Positions 2,327 to 31,394 are shown, counted from the first letter of the stretch. The stretch is 31,394 bases of DNA from Nitrospirota bacterium (GCA_016208915.1 JACQXE010000001.1:1-31394), one strand, 5' to 3'. A program made the numbers and translations. The notes: generated from the letters alone by a model not told the origin.

Positions 2327-2371
2327 CAAGGTGATACAAGATACAGGATGCAGGATACAGGATTAATATAC

Positions 2372-2406
2372 CATGCATCTTGAATCGTGAATCATGCATC
2401 TTGAAT
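2372..2406. repeat. Direct repeat CATGCATCTTGAAT x2 (2372-2385 and 2393-2406), ending directly at the ymdB start codon; preceded by ATACAGG/ATGCAGG heptamer repeats (2337-2362)
   Basis: Read directly in the rny-ymdB intergenic region. Confidence 0.4.
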
Positions 2407-2407
2407 T

Positions 2408-3190
2408 ATGAAAGTTCTTTTCATAGGCGACATCATTGGCAAGACAGGCAGAACAGTTCTCAAAACACTTCTGCCAAATCTTGTTGACAGATTCAAGATA
2501 GACATGGTAATTGCGAACGGTGAGAACGTTGCCGGTGGTTTTGGAGTAACAGACAAAACAGTCGCCGAGTTGCTGAATTATGGCGTCCATATAATCACAA
2601 GCGGCAATCACATCTGGGATAAAAAAGAATCCATTCCGTATATTGCAAAAGAAAGCAGGATATTAAGGCCTGCAAACTACCCTCCCGGCGTGCCTGGTTA
2701 CGGTAGCGTAATTCATACGCTTCAGAATGGCTTAAAGGTCGGAGTTATAAATCTCTCAGGCAGGGTATTTATGGCGCCAATTGATTGCCCTTTTCGAACA
2801 GGCAACGAAGAGATTAAAAAAATCAAAAAAGAATCTAATATTATTATAATTGATTTTCATGCAGAAGCAACCTCTGAAAAAATAGCGTTCGGCTATTATG
2901 TCGATGGCAAGGTAAGCGCAGTGGTTGGAACACATACGCATGTCCAGACAGCAGATGAAAAAATCCTTCCTGCCGGAACTGCATACATCACAGATGTAGG
3001 CATGACAGGCCCGTCAAATTCTGTCATAGGCATAGAAAAGGAGCAAATCATAGAACGTTTTTTAATGCATATGCCTATGAAATTTGAGATAGCAAAAGGG
3101 GAAAGCATCTTATCAGCAGTAGTTATAGAAGTTGATGAAAATACAGGAAAGTCAACTGCAATACAGAGGTTACAAATCAAATATCCTTAG
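2408..3190 (+). CDS. ymdB: YmdB-family metallophosphoesterase (2',3'-cyclic-nucleotide phosphodiesterase)
   Basis: Near-colinear match to YmdB signature blocks (MKVLFIGDIIG, ANGENVAGGFG, TSGNHIWDKKE, DFHAEATSEK, GTHTHVQTAD); conserved rny-ymdB pairing. Confidence 0.9.
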   Translation: MKVLFIGDIIGKTGRTVLKTLLPNLVDRFKIDMVIANGENVAGGFGVTDKTVAELLNYGVHIITSGNHIWDKKESIPYIAKESRILRPANYPPGVPGYGSVIHTLQNGLKVGVINLSGRVFMAPIDCPFRTGNEEIKKIKKESNIIIIDFHAEATSEKIAFGYYVDGKVSAVVGTHTHVQTADEKILPAGTAYITDVGMTGPSNSVIGIEKEQIIERFLMHMPMKFEIAKGESILSAVVIEVDENTGKSTAIQRLQIKYP

Positions 3191-3325: not shown

Positions 3326-4558
3326 CTATTTTTTGAATATATTCGGTTCTCCGCCTTTTACAAATTGCAAGCTTATCAGACCGAGCAAAAAGAATAATGC
3401 CACTGAGAGTATTGCATATCGCTGGCTTCCAAAATAAGATGACACGCAGCCGAATAGTAAAGGCCCGAAAATAGCCGAAGACTTTCCTGCCATCGAATAT
3501 GCGCCAAAATATTCTGATTCATGCCCTATAGGAACAAACTGGGTGAAGAATGCCCTTGATGCAGCCTGAACAGTTCCAAGTCCAAGACCCGCAATAAATG
3601 CAACTATCCAGAACTGCAATTTTGTCTGGACAAGATACGCGATTATTGTTACAGCAGACCACAGAAATAATGACATGGTGACAACCTTCTTAGGCCCCCA
3701 TGAATCTATAGGTCTGGCCATAACAAATGCGCCAAGCAAAGCAGTTGTCTGAACAATAAGATAAAGCATTATCAGTTCCTGCGTATGAAATCCAATTGTG
3801 GTTGCAGCAAAGATACTCGAGAACACAATCACTGTATTTACACCGTCTTCGTATATCAGATAAGATATCAGAAACCTTCTTGTGTCCTTTTTTGACCATA
3901 TGTCTTTAAACGTATTCCATGTATATTTCAGACCTTTTGATGCTGAGTGTATTAATCCTGAATTTCCCCTCGTATCCTTCGGCAGAAACAAAAATGCAGG
4001 TATAGAAAAAACAGCAAAAAATCCTGCAACCATAATCCAGGTCAGGTCAAAATATCCCCTCTTAACCAATGGTATTGCAAAAAGCAAAGACAGTATCGAG
4101 CCAAGATAACCTATCCCATATCCCCATGCTGAGACCCTTCCCTGATATTTTTTTTCTGCAATATCAGGTAAAAATGAATTGTAAAATACGAATCCTCCCT
4201 CCATTCCAATGTTTGCTATAGTTGCAAGAATGAAACCTTCAATGACCATGCCTTTCTGAATCAGAGAAAATGATGCGACTGCAAAGATACATAAAAGGGT
4301 ATATATAAAAAGAAGTCTTTTCCTGATGCCTCCATAGTCTGCAATGCCGCCAAGCAGAGGGGATATCAAGACTACAAAGGCCATGCTTAAAGATATTGCT
4401 CTGCCCCACCATAAATCACCAAGCCCTGATTCATTTCCAACTATATAATTTGCATAATAGACAGGGAATATGACAGCGCTTATCACAGCAGAATAGCTTG
4501 AATTGGCAAAATCAAAAAAACACCAGCTAAGGATTTGTTTTTTATTTTTCAGAGGCAT
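3326..4558 (-). CDS. Major-facilitator-type membrane transporter (about 12 predicted TM segments)
   Basis: 410-aa highly hydrophobic protein with repeated helix pattern; last gene of the minus-strand etfB-etfA-fabD block. Confidence 0.6.
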   Translation of the reverse strand: MPLKNKKQILSWCFFDFANSSYSAVISAVIFPVYYANYIVGNESGLGDLWWGRAISLSMAFVVLISPLLGGIADYGGIRKRLLFIYTLLCIFAVASFSLIQKGMVIEGFILATIANIGMEGGFVFYNSFLPDIAEKKYQGRVSAWGYGIGYLGSILSLLFAIPLVKRGYFDLTWIMVAGFFAVFSIPAFLFLPKDTRGNSGLIHSASKGLKYTWNTFKDIWSKKDTRRFLISYLIYEDGVNTVIVFSSIFAATTIGFHTQELIMLYLIVQTTALLGAFVMARPIDSWGPKKVVTMSLFLWSAVTIIAYLVQTKLQFWIVAFIAGLGLGTVQAASRAFFTQFVPIGHESEYFGAYSMAGKSSAIFGPLLFGCVSSYFGSQRYAILSVALFFLLGLISLQFVKGGEPNIFKK

Positions 4559-4569
4559 ACAGTATTCCT

Positions 4570-5514
4570 TTAATCCTGAATCTCTTTTAATCCTACTATT
4601 GTCTTTTCAAGGCTTTCACTGTCTTCTACATTAAAAATTATCGTCTGAGGTTCGATTCTCTTAATAAGTCCTGAGAGAACCTTGCCGGGGCCGACTTCTA
4701 TAAATATCTTTACGCCTGACTCAAAAATTGTCTTTATGGAATCTTCCCATAAGACAGGGCTGTAAAGCTGTTTTAACAGAGATGCTTTTATGTCAGCAGC
4801 ATTATTTATAAATACTGCATCTGCATTGCTGACGATGGGGATCTCAGGGTTTTTCATCTCTATTTTTTCAAGAGACATAAATTCAGAGAGCTGATCAGAG
4901 GCTTCCCTCATGAGATTACAATGAGACGGAGCGCTCACTGACAATGGAAGCGCCCTCTTAGCACCGGCCTCTTTTGCACGATTTATTGCTTCTTTAACAG
5001 CACCCTTCTCACCTGCGATAACGATCTGGCCGGGACAGTTGTAATTAGCCGGGGCAACATAGCCGGAACTGACTGAAGAACATATAGCCTTCAGCTTTTC
5101 TTTATCCAATCCAAGAATTGCAGCCATGAGTCCTTTTCCCTCGGGGACGGCCTGTTGCATTAACTGACCGCGCTTTTCAGTGAGTTTTACAGCATATCTG
5201 AGCGGAAAAACTGAAGCTGCAACGAGCGCTGAATATTCTCCTAAGCTATGTCCCGCAACAACAGAAGGTGTTATCCCTCTCAATTTTAATACGGTATAAG
5301 CGGCAATACTTGCCACAAGAAGGCACGGTTGTGTTCTATAGGTTTTATTCAATTCTTCTGCTGGTTTATTAAAAGTTAAATCAGCAACATTATATCCTAG
5401 TGTATCAGAGGCTTCCCTGTAGAGAGATTTTACCTCTTTAAAATGCTCATACAGGTCTTTGCCCATTCCGACATATTGTGAGCCTTGGCCTGGGAATACA
5501 AAGGCAAGTTTCAT
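4570..5514 (-). CDS. fabD: Malonyl-CoA:ACP transacylase
   Basis: FPGQGSQ and GHSLGEY active-site motifs; 314 aa. Confidence 0.9.
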   Translation of the reverse strand: MKLAFVFPGQGSQYVGMGKDLYEHFKEVKSLYREASDTLGYNVADLTFNKPAEELNKTYRTQPCLLVASIAAYTVLKLRGITPSVVAGHSLGEYSALVAASVFPLRYAVKLTEKRGQLMQQAVPEGKGLMAAILGLDKEKLKAICSSVSSGYVAPANYNCPGQIVIAGEKGAVKEAINRAKEAGAKRALPLSVSAPSHCNLMREASDQLSEFMSLEKIEMKNPEIPIVSNADAVFINNAADIKASLLKQLYSPVLWEDSIKTIFESGVKIFIEVGPGKVLSGLIKRIEPQTIIFNVEDSESLEKTIVGLKEIQD

Positions 5515-6710
5515 GCTTTTAGCTCTTTAATCTTCTTTATCAAAAGAGGCAGCACTTCAAAAATGTCGCCGACTATTCCGTACGTTGCAACATTAAATAT
5601 AGGCGCCTCAGGATTTTTATTGATCGCAATAATGATATCTGACGACTGCATGCCGACAAGGTGCTGCACAGCGCCTGATATGCCGCAGGCGATATATATC
5701 TTTGGGCATACTGTCTTGCCTGTCTGGCCTACCTGATGACTGTATGGTATCCAGCCTTCATCAACCGCTGCCCTCGATGCGCCAACAGTCCCGCCCAAAC
5801 TTTCAGCAAGTTCTGTAAGAAGCTCAAATCCCTTTGTGCCGCCAATGCCTCTGCCTCCTGCAATAATTATATCCGCCTCCTGAAGATTTACTTTGCATTC
5901 TGAGGTCTCTTTTACAGTCTCTATTACCTTGGTCCTACAGGCAAGATTTTCTGCGTTAACAGCTATGAGCTCACCCTTTCTGTCGGGATTATACTCTCCT
6001 TTTTTCATAACCCTTGGTCTTACCGTAGCTATTTGGGGCCGATAATTAGGACAGAGTATTGTTGCCATTATATTCCCGCCGAATGCAGGACGGATCTGAA
6101 GGAGATTGCCTGTTTCCTTTTCTATCTCGAGTGATGTGCAGTCTGCAGTAAGGCCGGTTCTTAATCTCGCTGCGACCCTCGGAATAAATGAGCGGCCGAT
6201 CAGCGTAGCACCTGCAAGGACAATCGCAGGCTTATAGTCATTAATAAGCCTGACGAGAAGTTTGGAGTATGGCTCGTCATTAAATTTTTCAAAGATAGTA
6301 TCTTTCGCATGATAAACTTTATCTGCTCCCCACTTTATAAGCTCATGCGCATTATTTTCAGCAGCGCCAAATAATACAGCAGAGAGTTCTGCTCTAAGTT
6401 CATCTGCAAGCCTTCTTCCTACACCGAGCAGTTCAAGAGAAACAGATGCTAAATCTTTCTCCCTCTGTTCAGCAAATATCCATACGCCTTTATAGGCTGA
6501 GGGCTGATAGCTGATTGCTGATTGCTGTGTGCCTTCTTCTGGTATTTCTTTTATCGCTCCTTCCGGACACGCTGTTATACATGCCATGCATATCTGGCAA
6601 TATTCATTGATAAAAGCCTTGCCATCTTTGATCTCAATAGCAGTAAACGGGCATACACTAACGCATGTCTCACAACCATTACATTTGTCTCTGTTAATTA
6701 TTACAGACAT
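5511..6710 (-). CDS. etfA: Electron transfer flavoprotein alpha subunit with N-terminal 2x[4Fe-4S] ferredoxin domain (FixB-like)
   Basis: Two CxxCxxCxxxCP clusters in the first 60 aa, followed by an EtfA FAD-binding domain. Start overlaps etfB end; stop overlaps fabD start. Confidence 0.85.
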   Translation of the reverse strand: MSVIINRDKCNGCETCVSVCPFTAIEIKDGKAFINEYCQICMACITACPEGAIKEIPEEGTQQSAISYQPSAYKGVWIFAEQREKDLASVSLELLGVGRRLADELRAELSAVLFGAAENNAHELIKWGADKVYHAKDTIFEKFNDEPYSKLLVRLINDYKPAIVLAGATLIGRSFIPRVAARLRTGLTADCTSLEIEKETGNLLQIRPAFGGNIMATILCPNYRPQIATVRPRVMKKGEYNPDRKGELIAVNAENLACRTKVIETVKETSECKVNLQEADIIIAGGRGIGGTKGFELLTELAESLGGTVGASRAAVDEGWIPYSHQVGQTGKTVCPKIYIACGISGAVQHLVGMQSSDIIIAINKNPEAPIFNVATYGIVGDIFEVLPLLIKKIKELKA

Positions 6711-7483
6711 CTCATTCCCTTTAACTCTTCTATAAGCTGGCCTATCTGTTCTTCGATGCTTCCATTTAAAGGCTTTCTGTCTTTCCTTGCCTCTGGAGCA
6801 AAGATGTTCTTTACCTGTGTGGGTGAGCCTTTCAGTCCTGTGTCTTTTTCATCGACATCCAGATCAGTATGTCCCCATTTTTTAATCTCTGCCTTTTTAG
6901 CAGCTATTTTCCCTTTTAAAGAAGGAAGCCTTGGCTGATTAAGTTCCTTCACAACTGTTAATAGCACCGGCAGAGTTGATTCGACAATGTCATAGCCCTC
7001 ATCCATCATTCGCTGAACCCTTATTAAATCAGGTTTTACCTGCTCAATCTTTCTTATATATGCAATATGCGGGATATTAAGGAACTCTGCTATTTCTGGC
7101 CCAACTTGCGCTGTATCGCCATCTATTGCCTGTTTGCCGCATATGATTATATCTGCGCTTATCTTTGATATTGCCTTTGAGAGTGTATATGCAGTTGCCC
7201 ATGTGTCAGAGCCTGCGAATGCCTTATCGCTTAAAAGCACTGCCTCATCAGCTCCCATTGAAATTACCTCTCTCAATGCAGACTCTGACTGCGGAGGACC
7301 CATAGTAAGCACAGTAACCTTACCACCTGCATTTTCCTTTATATGCAGTCCTGCCTCGACTGCATGCATGTCATAAGGGTTGATTATCGTAGGAACACCA
7401 TCCCTTATTAAGGTGTTGGTCTCAGGATTAATCCTTACTTCTGCCGAATCAGGCACCTGTTTTATGCAGACGACAATGTTCAT
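6701..7483 (-). CDS. etfB: Electron transfer flavoprotein beta subunit (FixA-like)
   Basis: MNIVVCIKQVPD... EtfB N-terminal signature; 260 aa. Confidence 0.85.
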   Translation of the reverse strand: MNIVVCIKQVPDSAEVRINPETNTLIRDGVPTIINPYDMHAVEAGLHIKENAGGKVTVLTMGPPQSESALREVISMGADEAVLLSDKAFAGSDTWATAYTLSKAISKISADIIICGKQAIDGDTAQVGPEIAEFLNIPHIAYIRKIEQVKPDLIRVQRMMDEGYDIVESTLPVLLTVVKELNQPRLPSLKGKIAAKKAEIKKWGHTDLDVDEKDTGLKGSPTQVKNIFAPEARKDRKPLNGSIEEQIGQLIEELKGMRCL

Positions 7484-7530
7484 GATTCCTTTTTTTGAAT
7501 TTAGTCTTGCATCGAATGATACAGAGAGTA

Positions 7531-7560
7531 ATTATACGATTTTAACAGGAGTGGTGTAAA
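7531..7560 (-). promoter_or_regulatory. Putative sigma-70 promoter for the etfB-etfA-fabD-MFS operon (TTTACA, 18-nt spacer, TATAAT)
   Basis: Consensus-like hexamers read on the minus strand ~45 nt upstream of the etfB ATG. Confidence 0.4.
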
Positions 7561-7562
7561 GG

Positions 7563-8927
7563 CTAAGCGCTTATATCTGTTGGTCCGATAAGAAGGCTCG
7601 GAGTTCCGATATTCCCATAAAATCTCAGGTCATCCCCTATTGCTTCTATCTTGCTGAAGAGGCTGAGCATGTCGCCTGATATAACTGCCTCTTTCACCGG
7701 AAATTTAACCTTACCTCTTTCTATCCACAACCCTGAAACGCCTACGGAAAATTCTCCTGATATGGGATTTGCAGTGTGCACCCCCATTGCCTCAGTTATA
7801 TAAAGACCATTATCAAGAGAATTTAACAAACTGATGAACGGCATAACATCAGATGCGCTCACAGCGCTTATAGAAAGATTTGTTATACCTACTGAAGGCA
7901 GCCCGGAATATCCGCCTCTTACTGCATTGCCTGTAGAGTTGACGCCTGCCTTTTTTGCAGTATATGTATTGTGCAGATAATGCTGGAGAATTCCCTCTCT
8001 TATCAAGACCTTTTCTGATGTTGCGACTCCTTCACCGTCAACAGGCACTGTCCCAAGTCTGCGGGGCGTAATTCCGCTGTCAACAATATTTATTCCTGAA
8101 GCCATTACCTTATGACCTATCTTGTCCTTTAGCAGAGACCTTCCCTTCTGAACTGATTCTGCTGAGAGCGATGATGCTAATATGCCTAAGAATTCTGATA
8201 CCACAGAATTATCCAATATGACAGGAACCTTTGCCGTGCTGATCTTTCTTGAACCAAGCAACTGCACAGCCCTTTTTGCGGCATTTCTTCCTATCTCATC
8301 GAATGACAGATCTTTTAAAAATCTGCTCCCGTTAAAATCCCATCCCATCTGTCCCTCTCCGTTTTCCTCAGCAACAGCCATCACCTGAGCTATACACTTT
8401 GTGTATGGATAGAATATGTCAACTCCATTTGAGTTTAGTACATAAATCTCTCCATTTGTGAACGTGGCTGATGCCTTTCTTATCTTTTTTATCCTGTTGT
8501 CAAAATCCTTTGCTGCCTTTTCTATTGTAAGTACATATGTTATCGCCTCTTCTTCCTTCAGGGCTTCTATTTCCTTGTCAAATATCTCAAGGCTATCTAA
8601 TCGCCCTGTACCTAAAGCCTCATGCCTGCTGTTTGACGGCAGACCAAGATATTCATCTGCATCACTCCACTCTGACGATTCGATCGCATTCTTTACGACT
8701 GTTCCTGTCTCGGAATCTGATGTCGAATAGGAAAATCCAAGTCTCTGGTTCTTTATAATACGGAGGGAATAGCCAAAGCTTAATGATGACTCAACTGCAT
8801 CTATCTCCTGATTCTTTACCTCCAAGGTGAGACTGCCGGCTGATTTAAGATACACCTCTGCCTGTTCTGCACCGCTTTTGAGTGCAAGCGAGATGACTTC
8901 AGATGCAAATTCCCTCTTATCCCTCAT
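7563..8927 (-). CDS. TldD/PmbA-family metallopeptidase (U62)
   Basis: Full-length TldD/PmbA-like protein. Start placed at the internal Met (MRDKREF), because the longer ORF would overlap queD by 68 nt. Confidence 0.8.
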   Translation of the reverse strand: MRDKREFASEVISLALKSGAEQAEVYLKSAGSLTLEVKNQEIDAVESSLSFGYSLRIIKNQRLGFSYSTSDSETGTVVKNAIESSEWSDADEYLGLPSNSRHEALGTGRLDSLEIFDKEIEALKEEEAITYVLTIEKAAKDFDNRIKKIRKASATFTNGEIYVLNSNGVDIFYPYTKCIAQVMAVAEENGEGQMGWDFNGSRFLKDLSFDEIGRNAAKRAVQLLGSRKISTAKVPVILDNSVVSEFLGILASSLSAESVQKGRSLLKDKIGHKVMASGINIVDSGITPRRLGTVPVDGEGVATSEKVLIREGILQHYLHNTYTAKKAGVNSTGNAVRGGYSGLPSVGITNLSISAVSASDVMPFISLLNSLDNGLYITEAMGVHTANPISGEFSVGVSGLWIERGKVKFPVKEAVISGDMLSLFSKIEAIGDDLRFYGNIGTPSLLIGPTDISA

Positions 8928-9288
8928 AATATGTTGCTGATGCCGAATCCGATTCCCATACTGTAACAGCAGACATCTGGACATGCTCGTTTTGAAGCTT
9001 TTTGTTCATTGAATCATAAATCCATTTAGCTACATTTTCTGACGATGGATTTTTTTCTGTGAAAGGGAATATATCATTCAAAAACGAATGATCCAGCGGC
9101 TCTAAAATCTCGTTCTGAAGTTTTTTCAGATCATGGAAATCGATTGCTATATCTATATCATTGAGTCTTTCAGCCAATACATGCACCTGAACTTTCCAGT
9201 TATGCCCATGCATCTGTTCGCATTTTCCTTTGTATCCTCTCAATTGATGTGCAGCAGAAAAGGTTGTCTCCACCATTAGTTCAAACAT
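8917..9288 (-). CDS. queD: 6-carboxy-5,6,7,8-tetrahydropterin synthase (QueD)
   Basis: 123 aa with the Zn-binding CxxxHGH motif (CEQMHGHNW) and EXXH context typical of QueD/PTPS. Confidence 0.85.
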   Translation of the reverse strand: MFELMVETTFSAAHQLRGYKGKCEQMHGHNWKVQVHVLAERLNDIDIAIDFHDLKKLQNEILEPLDHSFLNDIFPFTEKNPSSENVAKWIYDSMNKKLQNEHVQMSAVTVWESDSASATYYEG

Positions 9289-9316
9289 ATAAGTATCCCT
9301 GCCTCCTTATTCCGTA

Positions 9317-9838
9317 TCACTTGGTCTTTTTAAATATCGATATGTACGGAAGGTTTCTGAATTTGTTGTCGTAATCGAGACCGTAACCTACCACATATTC
9401 ATTTGGTATCTCGAAGCCTACATAGTCTATCGGCACTTCTACCACTCTTTTCTCTTTCTTATCGAGAAAAGCGCATATTTTAAGACTCCTTGGACCCCTT
9501 GCGAGCACCCTCTCTCTTATATAATTGAGAGTTATGCCTGAGTCAATAATATCCTCTATCAGAAGCACATCTTTGTCTCTTATGTCTTCCCTTATATCGT
9601 AATAGACCTTAACTTCTCCTGTCGTGCTTGTTTTCAGATAGCTTGAGGCTATTATAAAGTCAACAGACAGGGGAACGTTTATCATCCTGACAATATCAGA
9701 GTAAAACATAAACGCTCCCTTCAGTATACCAACAGCCAGAAGATTCTTACCTTCATAGTCCGCAGATATCCTGTCAGCAAGTTCTCTTACTCTGTTCTGA
9801 AGCTGTTCGACTGTGAAAAACGGCTTTTCTATTACCAT
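9317..9838 (-). CDS. hpt: Hypoxanthine-guanine phosphoribosyltransferase
   Basis: PRPP-binding motif VLLIEDIIDSGITL; 173 aa. Confidence 0.9.
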   Translation of the reverse strand: MVIEKPFFTVEQLQNRVRELADRISADYEGKNLLAVGILKGAFMFYSDIVRMINVPLSVDFIIASSYLKTSTTGEVKVYYDIREDIRDKDVLLIEDIIDSGITLNYIRERVLARGPRSLKICAFLDKKEKRVVEVPIDYVGFEIPNEYVVGYGLDYDNKFRNLPYISIFKKTK

Positions 9839-14193: not shown

Positions 14194-15075
14194 TCATTGC
14201 TTGGTAAGGATCTCTATAATCTCCTTGTATCTCGCAGCGGTCTTTTCAATGATCTCATCCGGAAGTTTTGGGCCCGGGTATGTCTGGTTCCAGTCGAGGG
14301 TTAAAAGATAATCCCGTACAATCTGCTTGTCAAAGCTGTCCTGACCTTTTCCGGGTTTATAGTCCTTCATAGACCAGAACCTCGATGAATCAGGCGTAAG
14401 AAGTTCATCAATCAGGATTAGTTTATTCTCATAAATTCCAAATTCCATTTTTGTATCAGCAATAATGATGCCCTTCTTCTCTGCCATTGCCCTCGCCTTT
14501 TTGTAAACCTTAAGGCTTGTATCCCTGAGCTTGTTTGCAGTATCATCACCAACAATCTTTTTCATCTCATCAAAGTTTATGTTTATGTCATGCCCTGCTT
14601 CAGCCTTTGTGCTCGGTGTGAATATCGGCTCATCCAGTCTTGATGATTCAACAAGCCCTTGAGGAAGTTTTATACCGCAGACAGTTCCTTTCTCGTTGTA
14701 TTCTTTCCATCCCGAGCCTGAGAGATAGCCTCGTACAATACATTCAACAGGCATCGGCTTTGCTTTCTTAACAAACATGCTCCTTCCTTCAAGGATGTCG
14801 CTGTATTTATGGAGAACCTGTGGATAATCCTTAACATCAGTTGCAATGATGTGATTTTCGATTATATCCTTCATCTGTTTAAACCAGTATATTGATATCT
14901 GCGTCAACACTCTGCCCTTATCAGGAATCCCATTGGGCAACACAACATCGAACGCTGAGACCCTGTCTGTTGCGACAATTAACAAGTTATCCCCAACTTC
15001 ATACACATCTCTAACCTTCCCGCGCTTTTGAAGTTTTACATCTTTAAAATTCGTCTCCATAATAACATCAGCCAT
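14194..15075 (-). CDS. purC: Phosphoribosylaminoimidazole-succinocarboxamide synthase
   Basis: Long-form SAICAR synthetase blocks ([25 protein letters not shown]-like). Start overlaps the ATPase stop by 8 nt. Confidence 0.9.
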
Positions 15076-17791
15076 TTTTTCTCCTCCTTATTAATTTTTC
15101 TACCTCAACTGCAAAGAATACTACAGATGACAGGCCGAGTGTAAACACCAATTCACCGAAAGTCAAAGGCTCTGTCTTGAATATAGGATTTAAGAAAGGC
15201 ACATATATTGTTGCCATCTGCAAGGCAAAAGTCAAAGCAAAGGCGCCAACAAGAGGCTTGTTTGAAAACAACCCCTGCTTGAAGAGGGATTCCCGGTCTG
15301 ACCTTATTGCGAGCACATGCCCCATCTGGCTTAAACACAAAACAGTAAAGACCATTGTCTGCCAGTGGGCATGGCCTGTTTTGATAGACCAGGCCTGTGT
15401 AAATAGGGATACAGCACCCATCAGGAGCCCTACCCATACGATGTGGATACCAAGGCCATGGGCAAATATGCTCTCCTGCGGGTGTCTTGGCGGTCTGTTC
15501 ATGACCCCTTTTTCCGATGGTTCTGCGGCAAGGGCAAGTCCCGGCAGGCCGTCAGTAACAAGATTGATCCAGAGTATATGGATCGGCAATAAGGGGATCG
15601 GTAAGCCGAAAAACGGGGCAAGGAATATGGTCCATATCTCACCTGAATTGCTCGTCATTGTATATTTTATAAACTTGCGGATATTGTCAAAGATTCGCCT
15701 GCCTTCTTTTACCGCCTTCACAATAGTAGCGAAATTGTCGTCCAGGAGTATCATATGGGCCGCTTCTTTTGAGACATCCGTCCCTGTTATCCCCATTGCA
15801 ACTCCGATATCCGCCCTCTTTAATGCAGGGGCGTCATTTACACCATCCCCTGTCATAGCCACGAACTGGCCCTTGTCCTGAAGCGCCTTGATTATTTTGA
15901 GTTTTTGCTCAGGCGCCACCCTCGCATAGACCCTGAGATGGTCAACCCTTTCCTCAAACTCCTCCATGGACAGCTTTTCAAGTTCCCTTCCGGTAATGAC
16001 TGTCTTTGAGCCATCTTCAATAATGCCGAGCCTTCTGGCTATCGCCATTGCCGTGATCGGATGATCGCCTGTTATCATCACAGGCTTAATGCCTGCTGTT
16101 TTACATAATGAAACAGCCTCTTTTGCCTCTTCCCTCGGAGGGTCCATTATCCCGACCAGACCTAAAATAGTAAGCGATTTCTCAACGTGCTCAGGCGACA
16201 TGTCATCAGGCAGCGCATTCCAGTCCCTCATGGCAATACCGAGGACCCTCAGCCCGTCCGCTGCCATCCTGTTGTTCATCCTGTGAAGCTTCTGCACATC
16301 AAAAGGCATTAATCCATCTGATGTGAGAATGTTATCCGCCTTCTCAAGCAGCACATCCACACCGCCTTTTGTAAAAGAGATGATACTGCTTTCACCCTCA
16401 CCCCCTCCCATCAAGGGAGGGGGAATAGTTGGGATGTCTCTCATCAATGGAGAAGAAAGTCCCCTCTCCCCTTGCGGGAGAGGGATAGGGTGAGGGGGGA
16501 TTCTATGAAACGTCGTCATGCACTTTCTGTCAGAATCAAACGGTATCTCTGCAACACGTGGAAACTCTTTTTCCAGCTTGCTTTTGTCAAAGTCTTTTTC
16601 TTTGGCGATGTTATACAAAGCAGTTTCTGTCGGATCGCCGATGATGACGCCGGACGCATCCTTCTGTGCGTCATTGCTTAAAGCCAATGCTGTCATTAGA
16701 TAGGTGTGGGGTGTGAAATGTGAAGTGCCTGTTATATCTTCCTGACTCCTGACTATTTTCCCATCCACATAAATCTCTTCCACAGTCATCTTGTTCAGTG
16801 TGAGGGTGCCTGTCTTGTCTGAACAGATGTATGTGACAGAGCCGAGTGTTTCTACTGCAGGGAGTTTTCTTATAAGGGCGTTCTGCTTTACAAGCTTTTT
16901 GGCCCCAAGCGCAAGTGATATGGTTATTACAGCCGGAAGCGCCTCGGGTATTGCTGCAACTGCGAGGGATATGGCGGTCAAGAGCATCAACAATGGAGGT
17001 TCGCCCCTGAAAACCCCTATGCCGAATACAATGGCACATATTGCAAGCACTGCAAAGGCAAGATTTTTTCCGAACGTTGCAAGCCTTTTCTGAAGAGGGG
17101 TTTTGACCTCTTCCTCTTCCTGAAGCATGGTGGCGATCTTTCCAAGTTCTGTATTCATGCCGGTGGCCACGACAATGCCGGCGCCTCTGCCATATGATAC
17201 TGCAGTGCCTTTGTAGGCCATGTTCTTTCTATCGCCCATGGGCAGGTGTTCGTCGTGCAGTGCTTTGGTGTTTTTTTCAACAGGCACGGATTCTCCGGTA
17301 AGAGCAGCCTCTTCCGCCTTTAACTGGGCGGTCTCTGTAAGTCTCATATCAGCCGGCACAACCTTGCCGGCTTCGAGCAACACGACATCACCCGGCACAA
17401 GCTCTGATGCAGGAATATTCGTATGCTCACCGCTTCTTAATACAAGGGCGGTGTGAGCAGCCATTTTCTTAAGGGCAGCCATGGCCTTTTCAGCCCGGTA
17501 TTCCTGAACAAAGCCGATCACTGCATTCAGCAGTACTATTACTATTATCGCAATCGTGTCTTCAGGGTCTCCGACAATCCCTGATATGATTGCAGCAGCA
17601 ATAAGGACAAGGATCATGAAGTCCTTGAACTGGTCAAGGAACATCATGAACGGCGTCTTTTTCTTTTTCACTTTTAATTCATTCGGGCCGTATTCCAGGA
17701 TCCGCTTCCGGGCCTCTTCTGAAGATACACCCTTTAAAGACGAGTTCAGTTCTTCAATAACATCTTCAATTGTTTTTTGGTGCCAGCGCAT
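15068..17791 (-). CDS. P-type cation-transporting ATPase (type IIA/IIB Ca2+-ATPase-like)
   Basis: DKTGTLT phosphorylation motif, [17 protein letters not shown], 10 TM helices; 907 aa. Contains a ~42-aa in-frame insert (see repeat at 16376-16501). Confidence 0.9.
16376..16501 (-). repeat. In-frame 126-nt GC-rich nested palindromic element inside the P-type ATPase N-domain (encodes [42 protein letters not shown])
   Basis: Minus strand reads CCCTCACCC ... [CCCTCTCCC-GCAA-GGGAGAGGG] ... [CCCCCTCCC-TTGAT-GGGAGGGGG] ... GGGTGAGGG. That is two 9-bp hairpins nested inside an outer 9-bp stem. The insert interrupts the normally short segment between FDSDRK...FHR and FTKGG. Confidence 0.5.
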
Positions 17792-22242: not shown

Positions 22243-22592
22243 GGTCACATCTGACCTGATCTGAACGATAAATTCGTTGACAGGCACCTTACGATTAAGT
22301 CTTCATCTTAGGCAGGAGTTTTAATCATTTTGTAATCTGCCATTTATTAATAAGATTTCTTTTATGTTTTTCCAATCACAAAAAGCAGTTTTCCTTCCTA
22401 AACAGCATCTTTGAGTTTTACGCAGACTTCAGCTATAAAAGGTTCTTTAATAGCACTCTTCATTCTGAGTCCTGCAATGGTTTTATGTATTAAATTAGCT
22501 AAAGCGAAAATTTATGTAAATGAATACATTAGGTAGGACTTTTGAAAAACAAAATGAAAAGTGTTAAATTAATAGCAGCTAAAGGAGAAATA

Positions 22593-23066
22593 ATGCAGAG
22601 AGTCCCGATAACACGCAATGGCTATCAGAAACTTCAGGAAGAGCTCGAGAGGCTACTGAAAGTTGAAAGGCCGCAGATTATAAAGGCAATTGCAGAGGCG
22701 CGTTCACACGGCGACTTATCTGAGAACGCAGAATACCATGCTGCAAGGGAAAAACAGTCGTTTATAGAAGGAAGGATTAATGAACTCCAGTCAAAACTAT
22801 CGCTTGCAGACATAATTGACACATCCAAGATAACCCAGTCAACCGTCGCATTTGGTGCAAAAGTCAAGGTACTGGATATCCAGGCAGATGAAGAATATTC
22901 TTTCACGCTTGTAGGTCCTGATGAGGCAGATGTGAAAAGCGGAAAAATATCAATAAGTTCTCCTGTCGGCAGAGCCTTGCTCGGCAAAAAGACAGGAGAT
23001 ACCGCAATCATCAAGGCGCCTGCAAGGACAATGGAATATGAAATATTAGAGATAAACTTTGAATAA
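22593..23066 (+). CDS. greA: Transcription elongation factor GreA
   Basis: RPQIIKAIAEARSHGDLSENAEYHAARE and C-terminal FKBP-like domain. Start at MQRV with AAAGGAG RBS; the upstream in-frame ATG is rejected. Confidence 0.9.
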   Translation: MQRVPITRNGYQKLQEELERLLKVERPQIIKAIAEARSHGDLSENAEYHAAREKQSFIEGRINELQSKLSLADIIDTSKITQSTVAFGAKVKVLDIQADEEYSFTLVGPDEADVKSGKISISSPVGRALLGKKTGDTAIIKAPARTMEYEILEINFE

Positions 23067-23095
23067 ATACATAAGAAAGATTACTTTTATCAGCT

Positions 23096-24537
23096 ATGTC
23101 TAGTCGAATTGAAGATATTGATTATTCTATAATTCCTGAAGAATCAACCCCAATGTATAGAATCCACAGATACTGGGGAAGAAAACCATGGAATATTTTT
23201 GGTAAATACATTGAAAAATACACTTCCGAAGGGGATATCATCTTAGACCCTTTTTGTGGCAACTCAAAAGGAAAGTAATCGGTATTGATCTTAATCCAAT
23301 GGCTACTTTCATTACTCGTCAAATGATCTCTTATGTTGATTTGAGGGATTTCGAAGATGCATTTAAAAATATTTTGGAAAATGTAAAAAAAATATTTAAA
23401 GAAAATTATTCAACAAAATGTAAGAAGTGTGGTGCTAAGTCAGAGGTAATACATTTCAGGTGGGAAAGGCAAGAAAAAGATATAAAAATAAAAAGATTAA
23501 AAGATGCAGGAGAAATAAATCGCAATTTAGTCTCTATAACATATAAATGTGAAAATTGTGGATATGGAAGTGATAAACCTGAAAAATATGATATAGACGT
23601 CTCTACGCAGCCATATTTAAACAATTCACCAAAATATCTCATTAATAAGAAACTACAATTAAAGCACAGTTCAGAAGCAAAGGATTATTTTGATTTATTC
23701 ACCCCTAGAAATTTATTTTTTTTATCTGTTATATATGATGAAATTAATAAAATCAGTGTCAGCAAAATTAAAGATTTGATGAGGTTAGTTTTCTCGTCCT
23801 GTCTTACACAAAGCAGTAAACTTATTATGTATACCGAGAAAGGTATACGCCCTGAAGTTAGTGAACGAAGTAAAAGCTGGATAGCCACACGATTTCACAT
23901 CCAGAGAAATTATCTTGAAAAAAATCCATTAATTAATTTTAAAAACAGCTTTGAAACCGTATTTAAAGCAAAAAAGGAAAGTAATAATTTGATTGAAGAT
24001 TGTATCTTTGTTGATACATTTGAAGATCTATTTAAGGGGAAGGGGAATGTTTTGATTATAAATGATTCTGTCGATTATATAAATGATATCCCGCCAGAAA
24101 GTATTGATTATGTTATTACAGATCCACCATTTGTGAAAGATGTTAATTATATCGAGTTATCACAGCTATGGTTATTCTGGTTATTTAACAAAGACCCAGA
24201 TTTTGAAAAGGAAATCAGATGTAAAGAATCTATGGATAATTATAAAAAGCAAATGATTAACGTCTTTGAAAAGATTAAAAAGGTACTTAAAAAAGATAAA
24301 TACCTAACAGTTACATATCGGGCTGATGAACCTAAAATGTGGGACACAATGATACAATGCCCAACCGAAGCTGGTTTCTACTTAACAAAAATAGTGCCAC
24401 ACGCAATCGGGCATAGTATCGGAGCAAGGTATCGGCAACTTATGGCAAAAGGAACACCTGATATGGCAGAAGAAAAACATAAACTAATTCTTGGTTATTT
24501 CTACTTAACGTTTAATAAAAAAGAGCAATTAACTTGA
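23096..24537 (+). pseudogene. Frameshifted alpha-class (motif I...motif IV) N6A/N4C DNA methyltransferase with an internal Cys4 zinc ribbon
   Basis: ORF 23096-23278 ends ...YWGRKPW...ILDPFCGNSKGK*. ORF 23254-24537 continues in the -1 frame with VIGIDLNP... (AdoMet motif I split at the AAAAGGAAAG run). CKKCG...CENCG zinc ribbon; DPPF motif IV (VITDPPFVKD). Lower GC than flanking genes. Confidence 0.7.
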
Positions 24538-26492
24538 TGTCAAATAATTCTAATTTAAATCAAAGAATAATACAGAGAGCTGCGCAGATTATCGAAAAGC
24601 GGCAAGAGCCTACTCCTTTAATTTTTATCCTAATGAATCTTTACGAAAAATTGACACCGCCAGAAATAAAAGCATTATCTGTTCACAATATCATAGAAGA
24701 GCTCAATAAAAGTGGACGTCTCCAAGGAACAACTGAGTATAAAGAAAATCCCTTGTGGCAAAAATGGACACTGAAAAACGTGAAATTTGATAGGAAGAGA
24801 GCTTTGGAAACAATTATAAAAAATGAATTGGAAGAATTATTGCTTTATGAAAATGAGACAACAAATTTCTATATTAAGCATATCTCGAGTACTTTCAAGG
24901 GCGATCTAATAGTCAGTGCTCAAAGAGTTAAGAGGTTATTGGAACAAATTGCAAAAGCGGATGAGAAAACAGGAATCTTGGAACTTACAAAAAATAAGGG
25001 CAAAATACTTCATAGGAAAAGAGAAGAGACAATTAATAATCTGGCAGAATTAGGAAGAAAATATAAGTTCCATTCATTAAACGTTAAGAAAAAGATAGAC
25101 ATGCAATATGATGAGCTTAGTTTGGCGATTAAGAAGTTTATACCTAGAACATCAAAAAGACTCGGTGAATCTGTTCTGTTTTGGTTAAAAAATAACAAGC
25201 CTGTCATAATGTACTACATAACATTAACAGGTAGAAAACCAAATGTTGACATAAAAACCGTCAGTAAAGCATTGTCTAACAATATTGTAGGTTTTCAGAA
25301 AATTATGATTTTTCCTTCTAAATTTGAAAAATATTTCAAAAGGATGAAAGAACATTGGGATTATATTTTGCTTGAGAATATAGAAAAAGTAATGAAAGAA
25401 AAGAAAGTTATAGATAAGATGCCCAGATTAAAATACACAAAAAAAGAACATGGGAAGCCAAAGAAAAGAGTAATGGCAACCGTTATTAAAAATATCCCTT
25501 ACCAAGTAGGATCAGAAATCAAATATTTTCGCTTGGTGTTAGAAAAACCACATATCCAACAGAATGCTAAACCAGGTCAATTCATAAATATTTTATGTCC
25601 AAGTCACAATTCGGTGAAAAAACATCTTGTTTTTGATACAGAAGAAACATATAAAAAATATCTAAAAGAAAAAAAGGAACTGTACACACCAAAACCTTTA
25701 TTGCGAAGACCAATAAGTATTCATAGGATTTATTATGAAGGCTTTGACCCAAGAACTTTGAAAGGGAAAAGACAATTGCCTCCAGAAATTAATCAGTATC
25801 TGGAAGGTGGAATAAGAAATCGTTTTGATATACTTGTTAAAATTGTTGGCAAGGGAACTAAAGCATTATCAGAAGTAAGAGAAGGAGATAAGCTTGATAT
25901 TATCGGGCCTCTTGGCCATGAGATTAATATAAATCCTTCACTTAAAAAAGCATTATTAGTGGCTGGTGGCATTGGCATTGCCCCTCTTTATGCGTTGGCT
26001 GAAAAACTGAGATGGGAGAATAAAAATGTCGTCCTCTTTTTGGGCACATTTGCAGAGCAAGACCTTAAAATGCTAGATTCTGGTTATACGATGGGTAATA
26101 TTGAAGCCAAAGAACTAATCAAAGAGTTTGAAGAAATGGGAATTGAAGTAAAGATATGTGCACAGGAAAAAGGATATAAAGGCCTATTTCGAGGAAAAGT
26201 TCATGAGATTTTCAGAAATTACATAGAAAAAAATAAAAACATTAAAGATTTCTCATCAAACACGGAAGTTTTTTCATGTGGACCAAAAGAAATGTTAAAA
26301 GAAATTGTAAAAATAGCGACGGAGTTTAATTTGCCACATCAGGTTTTACTAGAAGAAAGAATGGGGTGCGGGCTGGGTGTTTGTCTTTCTTGTGTATGCC
26401 CGACAATAGATAACAATGAAATTAAATACAAACAAATTTGTATGGAGGGACCAGCTTTTAATGCAGAAGAAATTGCCTGGGATAAATATTGA
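24537..26492 (+). CDS. Fusion protein: uncharacterised ~310-aa N-terminal domain plus divergent PyrK-like FAD/NAD-binding [2Fe-2S] reductase domain
   Basis: ATG overlaps the MTase TGA (TGATG). C-terminal 340 aa carry KPGQF, RRPISI, GGIGIAPL and CGLGVCLSCVC...C, as in the dihydroorotate dehydrogenase electron-transfer subunit, but with two ~25-30 aa inserts. The N-terminal domain has no motif I recognise. Confidence 0.7.
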   Translation: MSNNSNLNQRIIQRAAQIIEKRQEPTPLIFILMNLYEKLTPPEIKALSVHNIIEELNKSGRLQGTTEYKENPLWQKWTLKNVKFDRKRALETIIKNELEELLLYENETTNFYIKHISSTFKGDLIVSAQRVKRLLEQIAKADEKTGILELTKNKGKILHRKREETINNLAELGRKYKFHSLNVKKKIDMQYDELSLAIKKFIPRTSKRLGESVLFWLKNNKPVIMYYITLTGRKPNVDIKTVSKALSNNIVGFQKIMIFPSKFEKYFKRMKEHWDYILLENIEKVMKEKKVIDKMPRLKYTKKEHGKPKKRVMATVIKNIPYQVGSEIKYFRLVLEKPHIQQNAKPGQFINILCPSHNSVKKHLVFDTEETYKKYLKEKKELYTPKPLLRRPISIHRIYYEGFDPRTLKGKRQLPPEINQYLEGGIRNRFDILVKIVGKGTKALSEVREGDKLDIIGPLGHEININPSLKKALLVAGGIGIAPLYALAEKLRWENKNVVLFLGTFAEQDLKMLDSGYTMGNIEAKELIKEFEEMGIEVKICAQEKGYKGLFRGKVHEIFRNYIEKNKNIKDFSSNTEVFSCGPKEMLKEIVKIATEFNLPHQVLLEERMGCGLGVCLSCVCPTIDNNEIKYKQICMEGPAFNAEEIAWDKY

Positions 26493-27438
26493 AAAGCCTG
26501 ATTTAAGCGTAGAGATTGCAGGCATCAAGATGAATAACCCTATTATGATTGCATCTGGAACCTTTGGTTATGGTACAGAATTCTCTGAAGTTGAAGGTTT
26601 TTCTCATGATGAAGTAGGTGCAATTGTATTAAAGGGAACCACCCTTAATAAAACACGGGGGAATCCTATTCCGAGAATTGCTGAGGTAGACTGCGGGATT
26701 ATCAACTCCATCGGGTTGCAAAACCCAGGTATTGATTTTGTTCTGAAAAATTATATTCCTAAGTTACGTCAATATAAAACTAAAATTATTCTGAACATAG
26801 CAGGCTACAGCGAGGACGAATACAAAGAAATTGCTAAAAGAATTAATGACGTAAATGGTGTTCATGGAATAGAAGTAAATATCTCTTGTCCAAATATAAA
26901 AGAAGGTGGAATGCAGTTTTGTTTGGATCCTAAAATGACATTTAGAGTTATTGAAAAGATTAGAGGTGAGACAAAATTACCTCTTATAGTAAAATTATCA
27001 CCCAATGTAACTGATATCGTACAGATAGCCAAAGCTGCTATCGAAGGTGGCGCTGATGCCTTATCTTTAATAAATACTGTTACTGCTATGGCAATAGATA
27101 CTAAAACAAAAAGACCTAAATTGGGAGCTAATTTTGGTGGATTGTCAGGACCTGCAATAAAACCTATAGCTATACACAAAATATTCCAAACATATCAGTA
27201 TATAAGTCAATATGTGAAAGACAAAAAAATACCTCTGATTGGGATAGGTGGAATTGAAAGCGCGGATGATATCATTGAATTTATTCTTGCTGGCGCTAAT
27301 GCTGTTCAAATTGGCACCAGTACAATGATATATAAAACGACTATCGAACAAATTATTTCTGATATTGCAAATAGACTGTCAGAACTTAACGAGAAAAAAA
27401 TAAACAATCTCGTTGGAAAAGTAATTCTAAATACTTGA
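26461..27438 (+). CDS. pyrD: Dihydroorotate dehydrogenase catalytic subunit (class 1B)
   Basis: [36 protein letters not shown] and GANAVQIGT blocks. Start at the ATG (MQKKLPG...) overlapping the preceding gene by 32 nt; the ORF track begins at 26416. Confidence 0.85.
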
Positions 27439-27439
27439 G

Positions 27440-27592
27440 TTCATGCTGGCAGGGGCAACTGCAGTGGCTGTTGGAACTGCAAATTTTGTTAATCCCTATT
27501 CAACCATTGATATAATTAACGGGATAGAATCCTTTATGGAAAAGAATAATATAATAGATGTAAAAGAACTTATAGGAGGTTTAAGATGCTGA
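27440..27592 (+). pseudogene. pyrD: 3' remnant (~50 codons) of a second, resident-type pyrD, out of frame with and directly abutting the complete pyrD
   Basis: Translates to [50 protein letters not shown], a close match to the PyrD C-terminus. Higher GC than the upstream island. Its stop overlaps the RBS and ATG of the next gene. Confidence 0.7.
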
Positions 27593-28398
27593 CCCGTATG
27601 CCCCTGATAACTCTTACAACAGACTTTGGGTATAAAGATCCATTTGTAGGAATGATGAAGGGAGCGATATTTAATATAAACCCTTCTGCCCTAATAGTTG
27701 ACATAACCCATGACATAAATCCTTATAACATACGAGAGGCAGCGATAGCTGTTGATGTTAGTCACAGCTTCTTCCCTCCTACAACAGTTCACGTGGTTGT
27801 TGTTGACCCTGGTGTTGGCTCAAACAGACGGCCCATACTCGTTGTAACGGACCAGCATTACTTTGTAGGGCCTGACAATGGTGTGTTTTCGCTAATATAT
27901 ACTTCAAATAGCAGGACGCTTGATGTAAGACATATAATCTCAGAGCATTATTTTCTGCCTCAGAAAGGATCAACTTTTCATGGCAGAGACATATTTGCGC
28001 CAGTTGCCGCATGGCTTACTAAAGGGATAGAATCAGCCAAATTCGGTGACATTATCACCGACTATGTAACCCTGCCTTTCCCCTCAGTCTCAATGCCGAC
28101 AAAGACAACACATGAAGGAGAGGTTATCTACATAGATCGCTTTGGTAATGCAATAACCAACATAAAGTCCTCAGAAGTTGATGCGCTCTACAGCATTAAT
28201 CCTGAGGCAAAACTTAGAGTCTTGATAAAAGGCAAAAGGGTAGAGATCAAAAACTATTATTCCCAGGTTTCAGACAAAGAACTCTATGCATTAATAAACA
28301 GCTCAGGGTATCTTGAGCTTTTTGTTTACAGAGGGAATGCAGCTGGTGAATTCAATATAAAAACAGGGGATACTGTTGGTGTTATTCTTAACGTATAG
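27586..28398 (+). CDS. SAM hydroxide adenosyltransferase (DUF62 / SAM hydrolase family)
   Basis: [26 protein letters not shown] and FHGRDIFAP signature blocks; GGAGG RBS. Confidence 0.85.
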
Positions 28399-31161: not shown

Positions 31162-31394
31162 AAGGGTCAAGTCGCACGGCCTATTAGTACTGGTCAGCTG
31201 AATGCATTACTGCACTTACACCTCCAGCCTATCAACGTGGTAGTCTACCACAGACCTTTAGGTGGCTTACGCCACGGGAGACCTAATCTTGGGGTGGGCT
31301 TCACGCTTAGATGCCTTCAGCGTTTATCCTCTCCAGACATAGCTACCCGGCATTGCCATTGGCATGACAACCGGAACACTAGAGGTCTGTCCAT
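31162..31394 (-). rRNA. rrl: 23S rRNA, 3'-terminal ~230 nt (gene continues beyond the window end)
   Basis: The reverse complement matches the universally conserved 23S domain VI and 3' end (GTTGTCATGCCAATGGCA...GCTGAAGGCATCTAAGCG...GTTGATAGGCTGGAGGTGTAAGTGCAG...GTACTAATAGGCCGTGCGACTTGACCCTT). Confidence 0.9.

Follow-up and report, generated by a model that had tools for sequence, protein, structure and literature searches.

A probable second dihydroorotate dehydrogenase operon of Nitrospirota with an orphan methyltransferase fused to PyrK

Introduction

Why a DNA methyltransferase (MTase) should share an operon with enzymes of pyrimidine synthesis is the question raised by a gene block of a Nitrospirota bacterium. 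The block lies at positions 23096-27592 of a 31,394-nt contig (GCA_016208915.1, JACQXE010000001.1:1-31394), which was analyzed at its full length and is called the window here. It comprises a gene for an MTase, a gene for a protein with an N-terminal domain termed X and a C-terminal domain resembling PyrK, the electron-transfer subunit of class 1B dihydroorotate dehydrogenase (DHOD-B), a complete pyrD for the catalytic subunit (island pyrD), and a short 3′ stub of another pyrD. An earlier note, made from the sequence of the window alone, had seen in this block either a module for the modification of nucleic-acid bases, for example by formation of dihydropyrimidines, or akin to restriction-modification (R-M) systems, or a xenologous replacement of pyrK and pyrD (pyrKD) carrying an R-M remnant along with it. 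From the comparison with related loci, we consider the block to be probably a lineage-specific, horizontally spreading second DHOD-B operon of Nitrospirota, in which an orphan methylase is fused to PyrK.

Results

The island encodes a canonical PyrD and a PyrK-like domain

The island PyrD is predicted to be an ordinary class-1B DHOD catalytic subunit, complete as the earlier note had it. It scores above the cutoffs of NF005574 (377.2 bits vs. a cutoff of 269) and TIGR01037 (334.8 vs. 270 bits) and aligns end to end with the PyrD of the Lactococcus lactis enzyme DHODB (5UE9/1EP1). The catalytic cysteine is located in NISCPN at 26878-26895, and the motifs for binding orotate and flavin mononucleotide (FMN) are all present (K-x-T-T, N-x-I-G-L-x-N-x-G, N-T, and GGLSGP, aligned to chain A of 5UE9/1EP1). 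Island-type PyrDs form a separate clade of approximately 14 clusters at 61–91% identity, and the nearest pyrD beyond this clade, 55% identical, stands beside an ordinary 226-aa pyrK. The island pyrD overlaps the end of the gene for the PyrK part in all loci.

The open reading frame (ORF) upstream of it (24534/24537-26492) encodes 652 or 651 residues, and the 651-aa product, NCBI entry MBI4683593.1, is at present annotated as a "hypothetical protein". Matches to models of PyrK and of domains binding flavin adenine dinucleotide (FAD) or nicotinamide adenine dinucleotide (NAD) are confined to residues ~330-650. The PyrK-like nature of this C-terminal part, as proposed before, is evident from PF10418 (56.2 bits vs. 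a cutoff of 23.9), the four [2Fe-2S] cysteines in CGLGVCLSCVC...C at 26367-26441, and the FAD motif (R-x-x-S), which reads RRPISI at 25704-25721. The segment GGIGIAP follows at 25965-25985, the NAD/FAD folds are matched by PF00175 (26.9 bits) and PF00970 (22.2 bits), and the part aligns to L. lactis PyrK (1EP1_B/5KSW_B). Among its insertions, one is common to stand-alone PyrK proteins of Planctomycetota and the other is specific to the module. A separate PyrK translated from the internal methionine (VMATV) at the border between X and PyrK was considered and rejected; this methionine is not conserved in the other lineages, and PyrK is therefore presumably made as a fusion.

In principle, such a DHOD-like pair could reduce or oxidize pyrimidines within DNA or RNA, targeted by MTase and X, and thereby form a new base-modification or R-M-like module. 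The FMN-containing TIM-barrel fold and the chemistry of the pyrimidine C5–C6 bond are common to DHOD, dihydropyrimidine dehydrogenase, and Dus, the island PyrD is also weakly matched by the PreA and Dus models (168 and 27–29 bits, respectively), and the flavoenzyme pair is physically joined to a nucleic-acid-directed domain. However, PyrD exceeds the DHOD-B equivalog cutoff by more than 100 bits and retains every orotate-binding motif, and the repeated loss of the resident pyrKD where the module is present (see below) fits a plain functional replacement. We consider base modification highly improbable. With a canonical PyrD, the resident pyrKD lost in several carriers, and no active nuclease, a dihydropyrimidine-forming or R-M-like module as first envisaged for this locus is unlikely.

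The resident pyrKD was lost beside the module

The gene greA stands directly 5′ of the module wherever the left flank is visible (L005, L039, L042, L044, and L045), and the gene for SAM hydroxide adenosyltransferase (SAM_HAT) comes after a resident pyrD or its stub in L005, L039, L044, and L045. In the loci L039 and L044, the order is greA, a fused module, the island pyrD, an intact resident pyrK (259 aa), an intact resident pyrD (312 aa), and SAM_HAT. Island and resident PyrDs are 46–48% identical. The stub in the window is 55% identical to the resident pyrD of L039 vs. 32–34% to the island pyrDs (34% to the window's own), and the reading frames of the stub and the island pyrD differ. The homology to pyrD begins at 27437, the ATG of the stub is found 4 nt past the stop of the island pyrD, and its own stop overlaps the SAM_HAT start codon, in the same manner as the resident pyrD of L039 overlaps SAM_HAT. 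A recent tandem duplication as the source of the stub is ruled out by the identity of only 34% to the window's island pyrD. Because L039 and L044 keep the intact pair and the stub resembles the resident pyrD, the module most likely entered the locus between greA and the resident pyrKD, with loss of the resident pair following later. The view that the fragment at 27440-27592 is a pyrD 3′ stub marking a displaced pyrK-pyrD is thus borne out by these two loci and by the NF005574 match of the stub (Table 1).

A 49-codon stub with an identical junction (pyrD stop, GTTC, ATG) is found in the window and L050, which dates the deletion to before these two diverged. L005 has a 67-codon stub with another junction and a host-like GC content at third codon positions (GC3) of 0.47. 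In L045, the place of the resident pyrK-pyrD between the island pyrD and SAM_HAT (7161-7674) is taken by a 75-aa ORF and a gene for a ParE-like toxin. Our main, though indirect, argument for a module that supplies ordinary DHOD-B activity is that the resident enzyme has been repeatedly lost only where the module is present.

The stub itself does not look decayed. Over the 42 codons shared by the window (27443-27592) and L050 (1303-1422), 15 synonymous differences at 28.3 sites and 9 non-synonymous differences at 97.7 sites give a dS of 0.92, a dN of 0.098, and a ratio (dN/dS, omega) of 0.107, with a Fisher p of 1.6e-6 from few sites; all dN/dS values reported here are pairwise Nei-Gojobori counts. 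This pattern looks like a signature of purifying selection. The stub is possibly a real micro-protein, in which case the 49-aa ORF would deserve annotation as a micro-gene. It might also act as a translational-coupling bridge, which would explain the open frame but not the conservation of amino acids, or the deletion allele might have spread by recombination into genomes with a working resident pyrD. Programmed +1 frameshifting from pyrD into the stub was rejected, as no slippery site is conserved across the two types of junction.

Four lineages encode MTase, X, and PyrK as a single polypeptide

Context look-ups and one metagenome scan identified the same module, including a pyrD of its own that overlaps the end of PyrK, in at least seven Nitrospirota lineages; several of the loci compared are short metagenomic contigs. 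MTase, X, and PyrK form a single polypeptide of 1104–1132 residues in four lineages (1119 aa in L004, 1104 aa in L039 and L044, 1118 aa in L045, and 1132 aa in L047) and are encoded by adjacent overlapping genes in three, with the split form seen in L005/L006 and in L051 (55-4424) as well. The fused form is probably ancestral, since the more distant lineages are fused and only the group of the window and L005 is split.

The alignment of the seven lineages contains 326 invariant columns, including MTase motifs I and IV, the cysteines of a zinc ribbon, and the FAD, NAD, and [2Fe-2S] motifs of PyrK. The omega values from the comparison of the window with L051 (MTase, 0.18; X, 0.26; PyrK, 0.17; PyrD, 0.22) point to purifying selection on all parts of the module. 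This selection and the fusion in four lineages argue that the methylase part is a conserved component and no passive passenger. MTase and the N-terminal domain as regular partners of pyrK in related genomes, a finding that the earlier note had named as speaking against an unusual architecture, is what we observe within this clade. Around the module, no further system components are conserved in the loci compared. L047 has a 1004-aa protein with CHAT, NACHT, and HEAT-repeat regions encoded directly 3′ of its module (4520-7534), its right context being unlike that of the other loci.

Alternatively, MTase and X might be a passive R-M remnant that arrived with a xenologous pyrKD and has been kept because frameshifts or stops in the N-terminal part would abolish translation of an essential PyrK. 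The nuclease-like motif of X is indeed degenerate, MTase is broken in the window and truncated in L042, and its family is typical of R-M and defence loci. Hitch-hiking in a common ORF, however, guards against nonsense and frameshift mutations but not against missense mutations, and the low omega of MTase (0.18) and X (0.26) was obtained between two lineages in which the MTase is not fused. In addition, MTase motifs I and IV and the four ribbon cysteines are invariant in the seven lineages, down to approximately 49% identity. We regard a passive remnant as improbable. Of the xenologous replacement with an R-M remnant suggested earlier, the foreign replacement stands, and the remnant gives way to a component that is fused in four lineages and under purifying selection.

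The MTase carries a recent deletion in the window

The MTase shows motif I, a region of ~220 residues with a CxxC...CxxC ribbon, and then motif IV (DPPF), i.e., the alpha arrangement. The Cys4 zinc ribbon is located in the target-recognition region (CKKC at 23419-23430 and CENC at 23548-23559), and the catalytic motif IV, (D/N/S)PP(Y/F), reads DPPF at 24121-24132; both this motif and the four cysteines are invariant in the seven lineages. PF01555, a model based on beta-class enzymes, matches the protein in permuted order, with motif I before motif IV. Its scores for the two fragments in the window, 23.6 and 17.9 bits vs. a gathering threshold of 26.7, are those of a gene both permuted in order and split, and the intact relatives carry a precomputed PF01555 match. 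MTase models of PADLOC match the window MTase at about 1e-21 to 1e-30.

Motif I, which binds S-adenosylmethionine (SAM; F-x-G-x-G), is incomplete in the window, where a DPFCG remnant (23246-23260) precedes a deletion and a stop. The deletion, 28 nt between 23260 and 23261, takes out most of the motif. Logan contig L001, which comes from a sibling sample, shows 100% identity to the window from 23261 on and has 28 extra nt, by which GSGVSVAEALK is restored; just 5′ of 23261 it carries AGCGGTGTTTCAGTAGCAGAGGCATTAA, restoring DPFCGSGVSVAEALKLKRKVIGIDLNP in the MTase. Motif I is also intact in the relatives, reading DPFCGSG in L001, L051, L005, and L039 and DSFSGSG or DVFSGSG in L004, L045, and L047. 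The whole MTase is intact in L051 (86% identical), in L005 (74%), and in every fused version. Because L001 is otherwise identical and the MTases of the relatives are intact, the window gene appears to be a recent loss-of-function allele and not an old pseudogene. The description of a frameshifted alpha-class MTase with a Cys4 zinc ribbon is therefore accurate as to motif order and ribbon, and the "frameshift" proves to be a 28-nt deletion without a counterpart in L001. L001 (1-33) ends only a few bases from the deletion point, which would be expected of a sample in which both alleles were present and broke the assembly at this site. In L042, greA is followed by an MTase whose homology ends at approximately residue 229 (7830-9564; GC content of 0.33 vs. 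0.40 in the flank), which represents either an additional lineage with a truncated leftover of the module or a chimeric assembly.

A profile search with the MTase part retrieved hundreds of relatives at 30–37% identity, with E-values down to 1e-95. They fall into two size classes of ~540–560 aa and ~810–835 aa, and the latter carry PF27126 and often come from DPANN archaea. The relatives occur in defence-type neighbourhoods with genes for DUF2357 proteins, AAA ATPases, and PDDEXK nucleases. In P0015-P0045, ~810–835-aa relatives of which many are from DPANN archaea, an "ID.IW...FEVENTT" motif is conserved at the C-terminus in the nuclease-like domain (PF27126); these proteins may be uncharacterised single-chain methylase-nuclease enzymes.

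X resembles the C-terminal region of long methylases

X has no match in Pfam, NCBIfam, PADLOC, or PHROGs. A word-index homology search with X alone returned nothing, a profile search against PDB sequences gave nothing significant, and a scan of GTDB genomes found none with X, only ordinary PyrK relatives at ≤35% identity. With residues 1-315 of the 652-aa protein as the query, an exhaustive phmmer search of 1.84 billion protein cluster representatives yielded only two real relatives, a 650-aa X::PyrK protein and a 1119-aa single-chain MTase::X::PyrK protein.

The earlier note had taken the first ~310 residues to lack a recognizable family, and distant relatives have now been found. The hhalign comparison of the X alignment with the C-terminal ~350 residues of 19 long (~830-aa) MTase relatives gave a probability of 96.9% and an E-value of 1.3e-10 over 253 columns. 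The "ID.IW...FEVENTT" motif of the long relatives reads "vlFW.K...fYItlTg" in X, with the acidic residues lost, and the motifs invariant in X across the seven lineages include EPTPLIF, KFKG, and WDY. X thus seems to be a degenerate form of the C-terminal winged-helix and PD-(D/E)xK-like region of the same methylase family. This fold was assigned from one profile-profile match and a model of medium confidence; for the 652-aa protein, AlphaFold prediction from the single sequence gave an unusable model with a predicted local distance difference test score (pLDDT) of 37. Judged from the replaced residues, X is probably catalytically dead. No active endonuclease with an acidic/lysine triad of the PD-(D/E)xK type was found in the module, and since its nuclease-like domain lacks the acidic motif residues, the methylase would have no restriction partner. 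Because X matches the C-termini of the MTase's own long relatives, MTase and X together would represent one member of this family, and that entire protein appears to have been fused to PyrK.

Composition and exchange of the island

The island, which contains only the genes for MTase, X::PyrK, and PyrD (Table 1), deviates strongly in composition. Over 23096-27439, taken as one block of 4344 nt, the GC content is 0.324, and the remaining blocks of the contig average 0.425 ± 0.016 (z = -6.3). In 500-nt windows it is 0.28–0.35 across 23000-27500 vs. approximately 0.42 in the flanks, and the lowest-GC 4344-nt block of the whole contig begins at 23030. The codons AAA, ATT, and AAT are 2–2.7 times as frequent as in the flanking genes. 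Sliding-window GC content and codon usage thus confirm the AT-richer block seen earlier, and the identities assigned to its three genes hold in the profile matches. A promoter and terminator scan performed no better than on shuffled sequence, with no terminator detected from greA to SAM_HAT, and an Rfam scan of the island found no regulatory RNA.

Table 1. Features of the island and its flanks in the window.
Feature	Coordinates	Strand	Matches and remarks
greA	22542..23066	+	PF03449, PF01272; left flank of the module
MTase 5′ fragment	23096..23278	+	PF01555 profile positions 161-192; premature stop from the 28-nt deletion
MTase main ORF, alpha-order amino-methyltransferase	23254..24537	+	PADLOC PglXI 1.4e-29, MTase_II 1e-21, NF042963 1.7e-9
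X domain of the 651-aa protein, putative winged-helix region and degenerate PD-(D/E)xK-like domain	24537..25469	+	C-terminal region of ~830-aa MTase relatives
PyrK-like FAD/[2Fe-2S] electron-transfer domain, in-frame fusion to X	25470..26492	+	PF10418 56 bits, NF000799 E 8e-36
Island pyrD, predicted class-1B DHOD catalytic subunit	26461..27438	+	NF005574 377 bits; 32-nt overlap with the end of X::PyrK
49-codon 3′ stub, resident-type pyrD	27443..27592	+	NF005574 positions 256-301 of 304, E 2.4e-12
SAM hydroxide adenosyltransferase (SAM_HAT) gene	27586..28398	+	PF01887, PF20257; conserved right flank

The contrast with the host genes varies among the carriers. GC3 of the module vs. the flanks is 0.25–0.28 vs. 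0.37–0.42 in the window, 0.36–0.41 vs. 0.52–0.61 in L039 and L044, and about equal (~0.3) in L045 and L047. In L005 (2274-6631), it is 0.14–0.24 vs. 0.54–0.63 at the same locus as in the other lineages, which suggests that this module is a recent import rather than shared by ancestry. For the three lineages sampled best, the host proteins lie at roughly equal distances (71–73% identity for GreA and 52–59% for SAM_HAT), and the module proteins diverge among these lineages to a comparable degree (identities of 70–81% for PyrD, 60–71% for PyrK, and 49–74% for MTase). Synonymous divergence between the window (23096-27438) and L051 (55-4424) differs approximately seven-fold along the module (0.43 for MTase, 0.16 for X, 0.06 for PyrK, and 0.21 for PyrD), which indicates a recombination mosaic between closely related strains.

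As in genomic islands, composition is deviant and presence variable, with the GC z-score given above, the GC3 contrast in three hosts, and a varying state of the resident genes. No integrase or transposase gene is among those of the island, no tRNA was found in the window, and the island borders have no meaningful direct or inverted repeats. Site-specific integration is unsupported, there being no flanking repeats and no tRNA, and so is a phage origin, as a scan of viral contigs found nothing.

Elsewhere in the window, a 6S RNA gene lies near the left end (222-410, + strand; Rfam, 93 bits), and the 3′ end of a 23S rRNA gene is found at the right end (31163-31394, - strand). An EtfA with an N-terminal ferredoxin domain (2x[4Fe-4S]) is encoded together with EtfB at 5511-7483 (- strand), near genes for RNase Y and YmdB (761-3190) and a P-type cation ATPase (15068-17791).

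Discussion

The course of events that would account for the locus begins with one ancestral MTase::X::PyrK polypeptide of ~1100 residues. In the lineage of the window, a stop and restart would have detached the MTase and left X::PyrK. The module would have entered between greA and the resident pyrK-pyrD, and the resident pair would then have been deleted down to the 49-codon pyrD stub in the window lineage. By now, the module would supply dihydroorotate oxidation, with electrons passing from dihydroorotate through FMN, [2Fe-2S], and FAD to NAD+. The MTase part would most likely act as an orphan DNA N6-adenine or N4-cytosine methylase without a restriction partner, and X as a DNA-binding or docking scaffold that keeps the MTase on PyrK. 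Methylation is presumably dispensable for the DHOD role, because the window MTase has been knocked out by a deletion and the sibling population keeps an intact allele (SRR12113406). Catalytic coupling of methylation and DHOD is not needed to explain the data. The loci present this evolution in stages: an AT-rich xenologous operon beside the resident genes (L039 and L044), loss of the resident genes (the window, L005, and L045), and incipient decay of the unfused methylase (the window and L042).

A different interpretation is a functionally coupled machine, in which methylation or DNA binding by MTase::X is tied to the redox state or turnover of DHOD-B and the dead nuclease-like domain couples or docks the two. 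Possible forms are an epigenetic or defence methylase gated by NADH/NAD+ or by the supply of pyrimidines, or a DHOD anchored at the nucleoid. The Rosetta-stone-type fusion (a single chain in four lineages, overlapping neighbouring genes in three) would be natural for such a machine. So would the occurrence of X only in this module among the cluster representatives searched, yet with its low omega, the defence-type neighbourhoods of the MTase relatives, and the clade-specific insertions in the PyrK part. On the other hand, the sequences suggest no chemical link between SAM-dependent N-methylation and dihydroorotate oxidation, and no further conserved components surround the module. Moreover, the MTase of the window lineage is separate and knocked out while X::PyrK and pyrD are intact, i.e., the DHOD part needs no methylase activity. 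We therefore consider a coupled machine rather unlikely, and we doubt that biochemical coupling is what the long-kept fusion reflects. A single machine linking de novo pyrimidine synthesis, or NAD(H)/flavin redox, to site-specific DNA methylation or binding, perhaps with the selected stub as a component, seems to us quite unlikely.

Several points weigh against a horizontally spreading second DHOD-B operon with an orphan methylase, the explanation we prefer. The PyrK part stays under every PyrK equivalog cutoff of NCBIfam (the best being NF000799, with 123 vs. 314 bits), and together with the module-specific insertions this leaves room for an altered partner or acceptor specificity. Our view is of the loci only, and a pyrD of class 1A or class 2 elsewhere in the genomes would weaken the case for the module as the working DHOD. 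The long-kept fusion with a dead but well-conserved X hints at a functional link beyond two independent activities. Finally, GC3 of the module has not shifted toward that of the host despite the same locus in lineages with approximately 72% GreA identity, for which simple vertical inheritance is insufficient. Because of this lack of amelioration and the uneven synonymous divergence, we think it more likely that related Nitrospirota have exchanged the module by recombination via the conserved flanks.

If the fusion only anchors an orphan methylase to an essential gene, the module would illustrate how a gene can be retained through fusion. Coupling of the two activities, if real, would connect nucleotide metabolism with DNA modification in a new way.

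Comparison with known systems

In the literature searched, we found no description of a DNA methyltransferase using SAM that is covalently attached to the electron-transfer subunit of a core biosynthetic flavoenzyme; the two domain names occur together in no paper there, and the domain combination is absent from the libraries searched. PADLOC recognized no complete defence system, only the generic methylase models MTase_II, PglXI, DUF1156, and HmaB.

With class 1B DHOD, the PyrD-PyrK heterotetramer typified by L. lactis DHODB (1EP1/5UE9), the module shares the full-length PyrD, the cofactor motifs, and the overlapping pyrK-pyrD order. It differs in the size of its PyrK, 651 aa here and 1104–1132 aa elsewhere vs. 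~260 aa, which results from the N-terminal MTase and X. It also differs in the two clade-specific insertions in the FAD domain of PyrK, whose score falls below the PyrK equivalog cutoffs, and at the C-terminus of PyrD, where "GTANFxxP" reads "GTSTMIYK" in the island protein.

The long zinc-ribbon N6/N4 amino-MTases of alpha order (~810–835 aa, PF01555 and PF27126) resemble the module in the MTase core (30–37% identity), in motif order, and in a C-terminus homologous to X. In contrast to these, the module has the "D...EVE" acidic residues replaced and X is shorter, and its protein continues into PyrK or has been split off. Like orphan MTases derived from R-M systems (with Dam and CcrM as functional analogues), the module has an amino-MTase with (D/N)PP(F/Y) and no active cognate endonuclease. 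Local motif matches were obtained to 6PBD, 1G60, and 1EG2, the nearest solved chains being CcrM, M.MboIIA, and M.RsrI, none of them close. Unlike in these beta-class enzymes, the motif order of the module MTase is circularly permuted and the protein is tied, covalently or genetically, to a biosynthetic enzyme.

PyrK-type fusions are known in the bifunctional DHOD-B NAD-binding subunit/glutamate synthase (PRK12778), NfnA, and SudB, in which the FAD/[2Fe-2S] module is likewise a domain of a larger polypeptide. Whereas those proteins combine it with redox partners, the Nitrospirota module pairs it with a nucleic-acid methyltransferase that depends on SAM and has a nuclease-like, probably DNA-binding domain.

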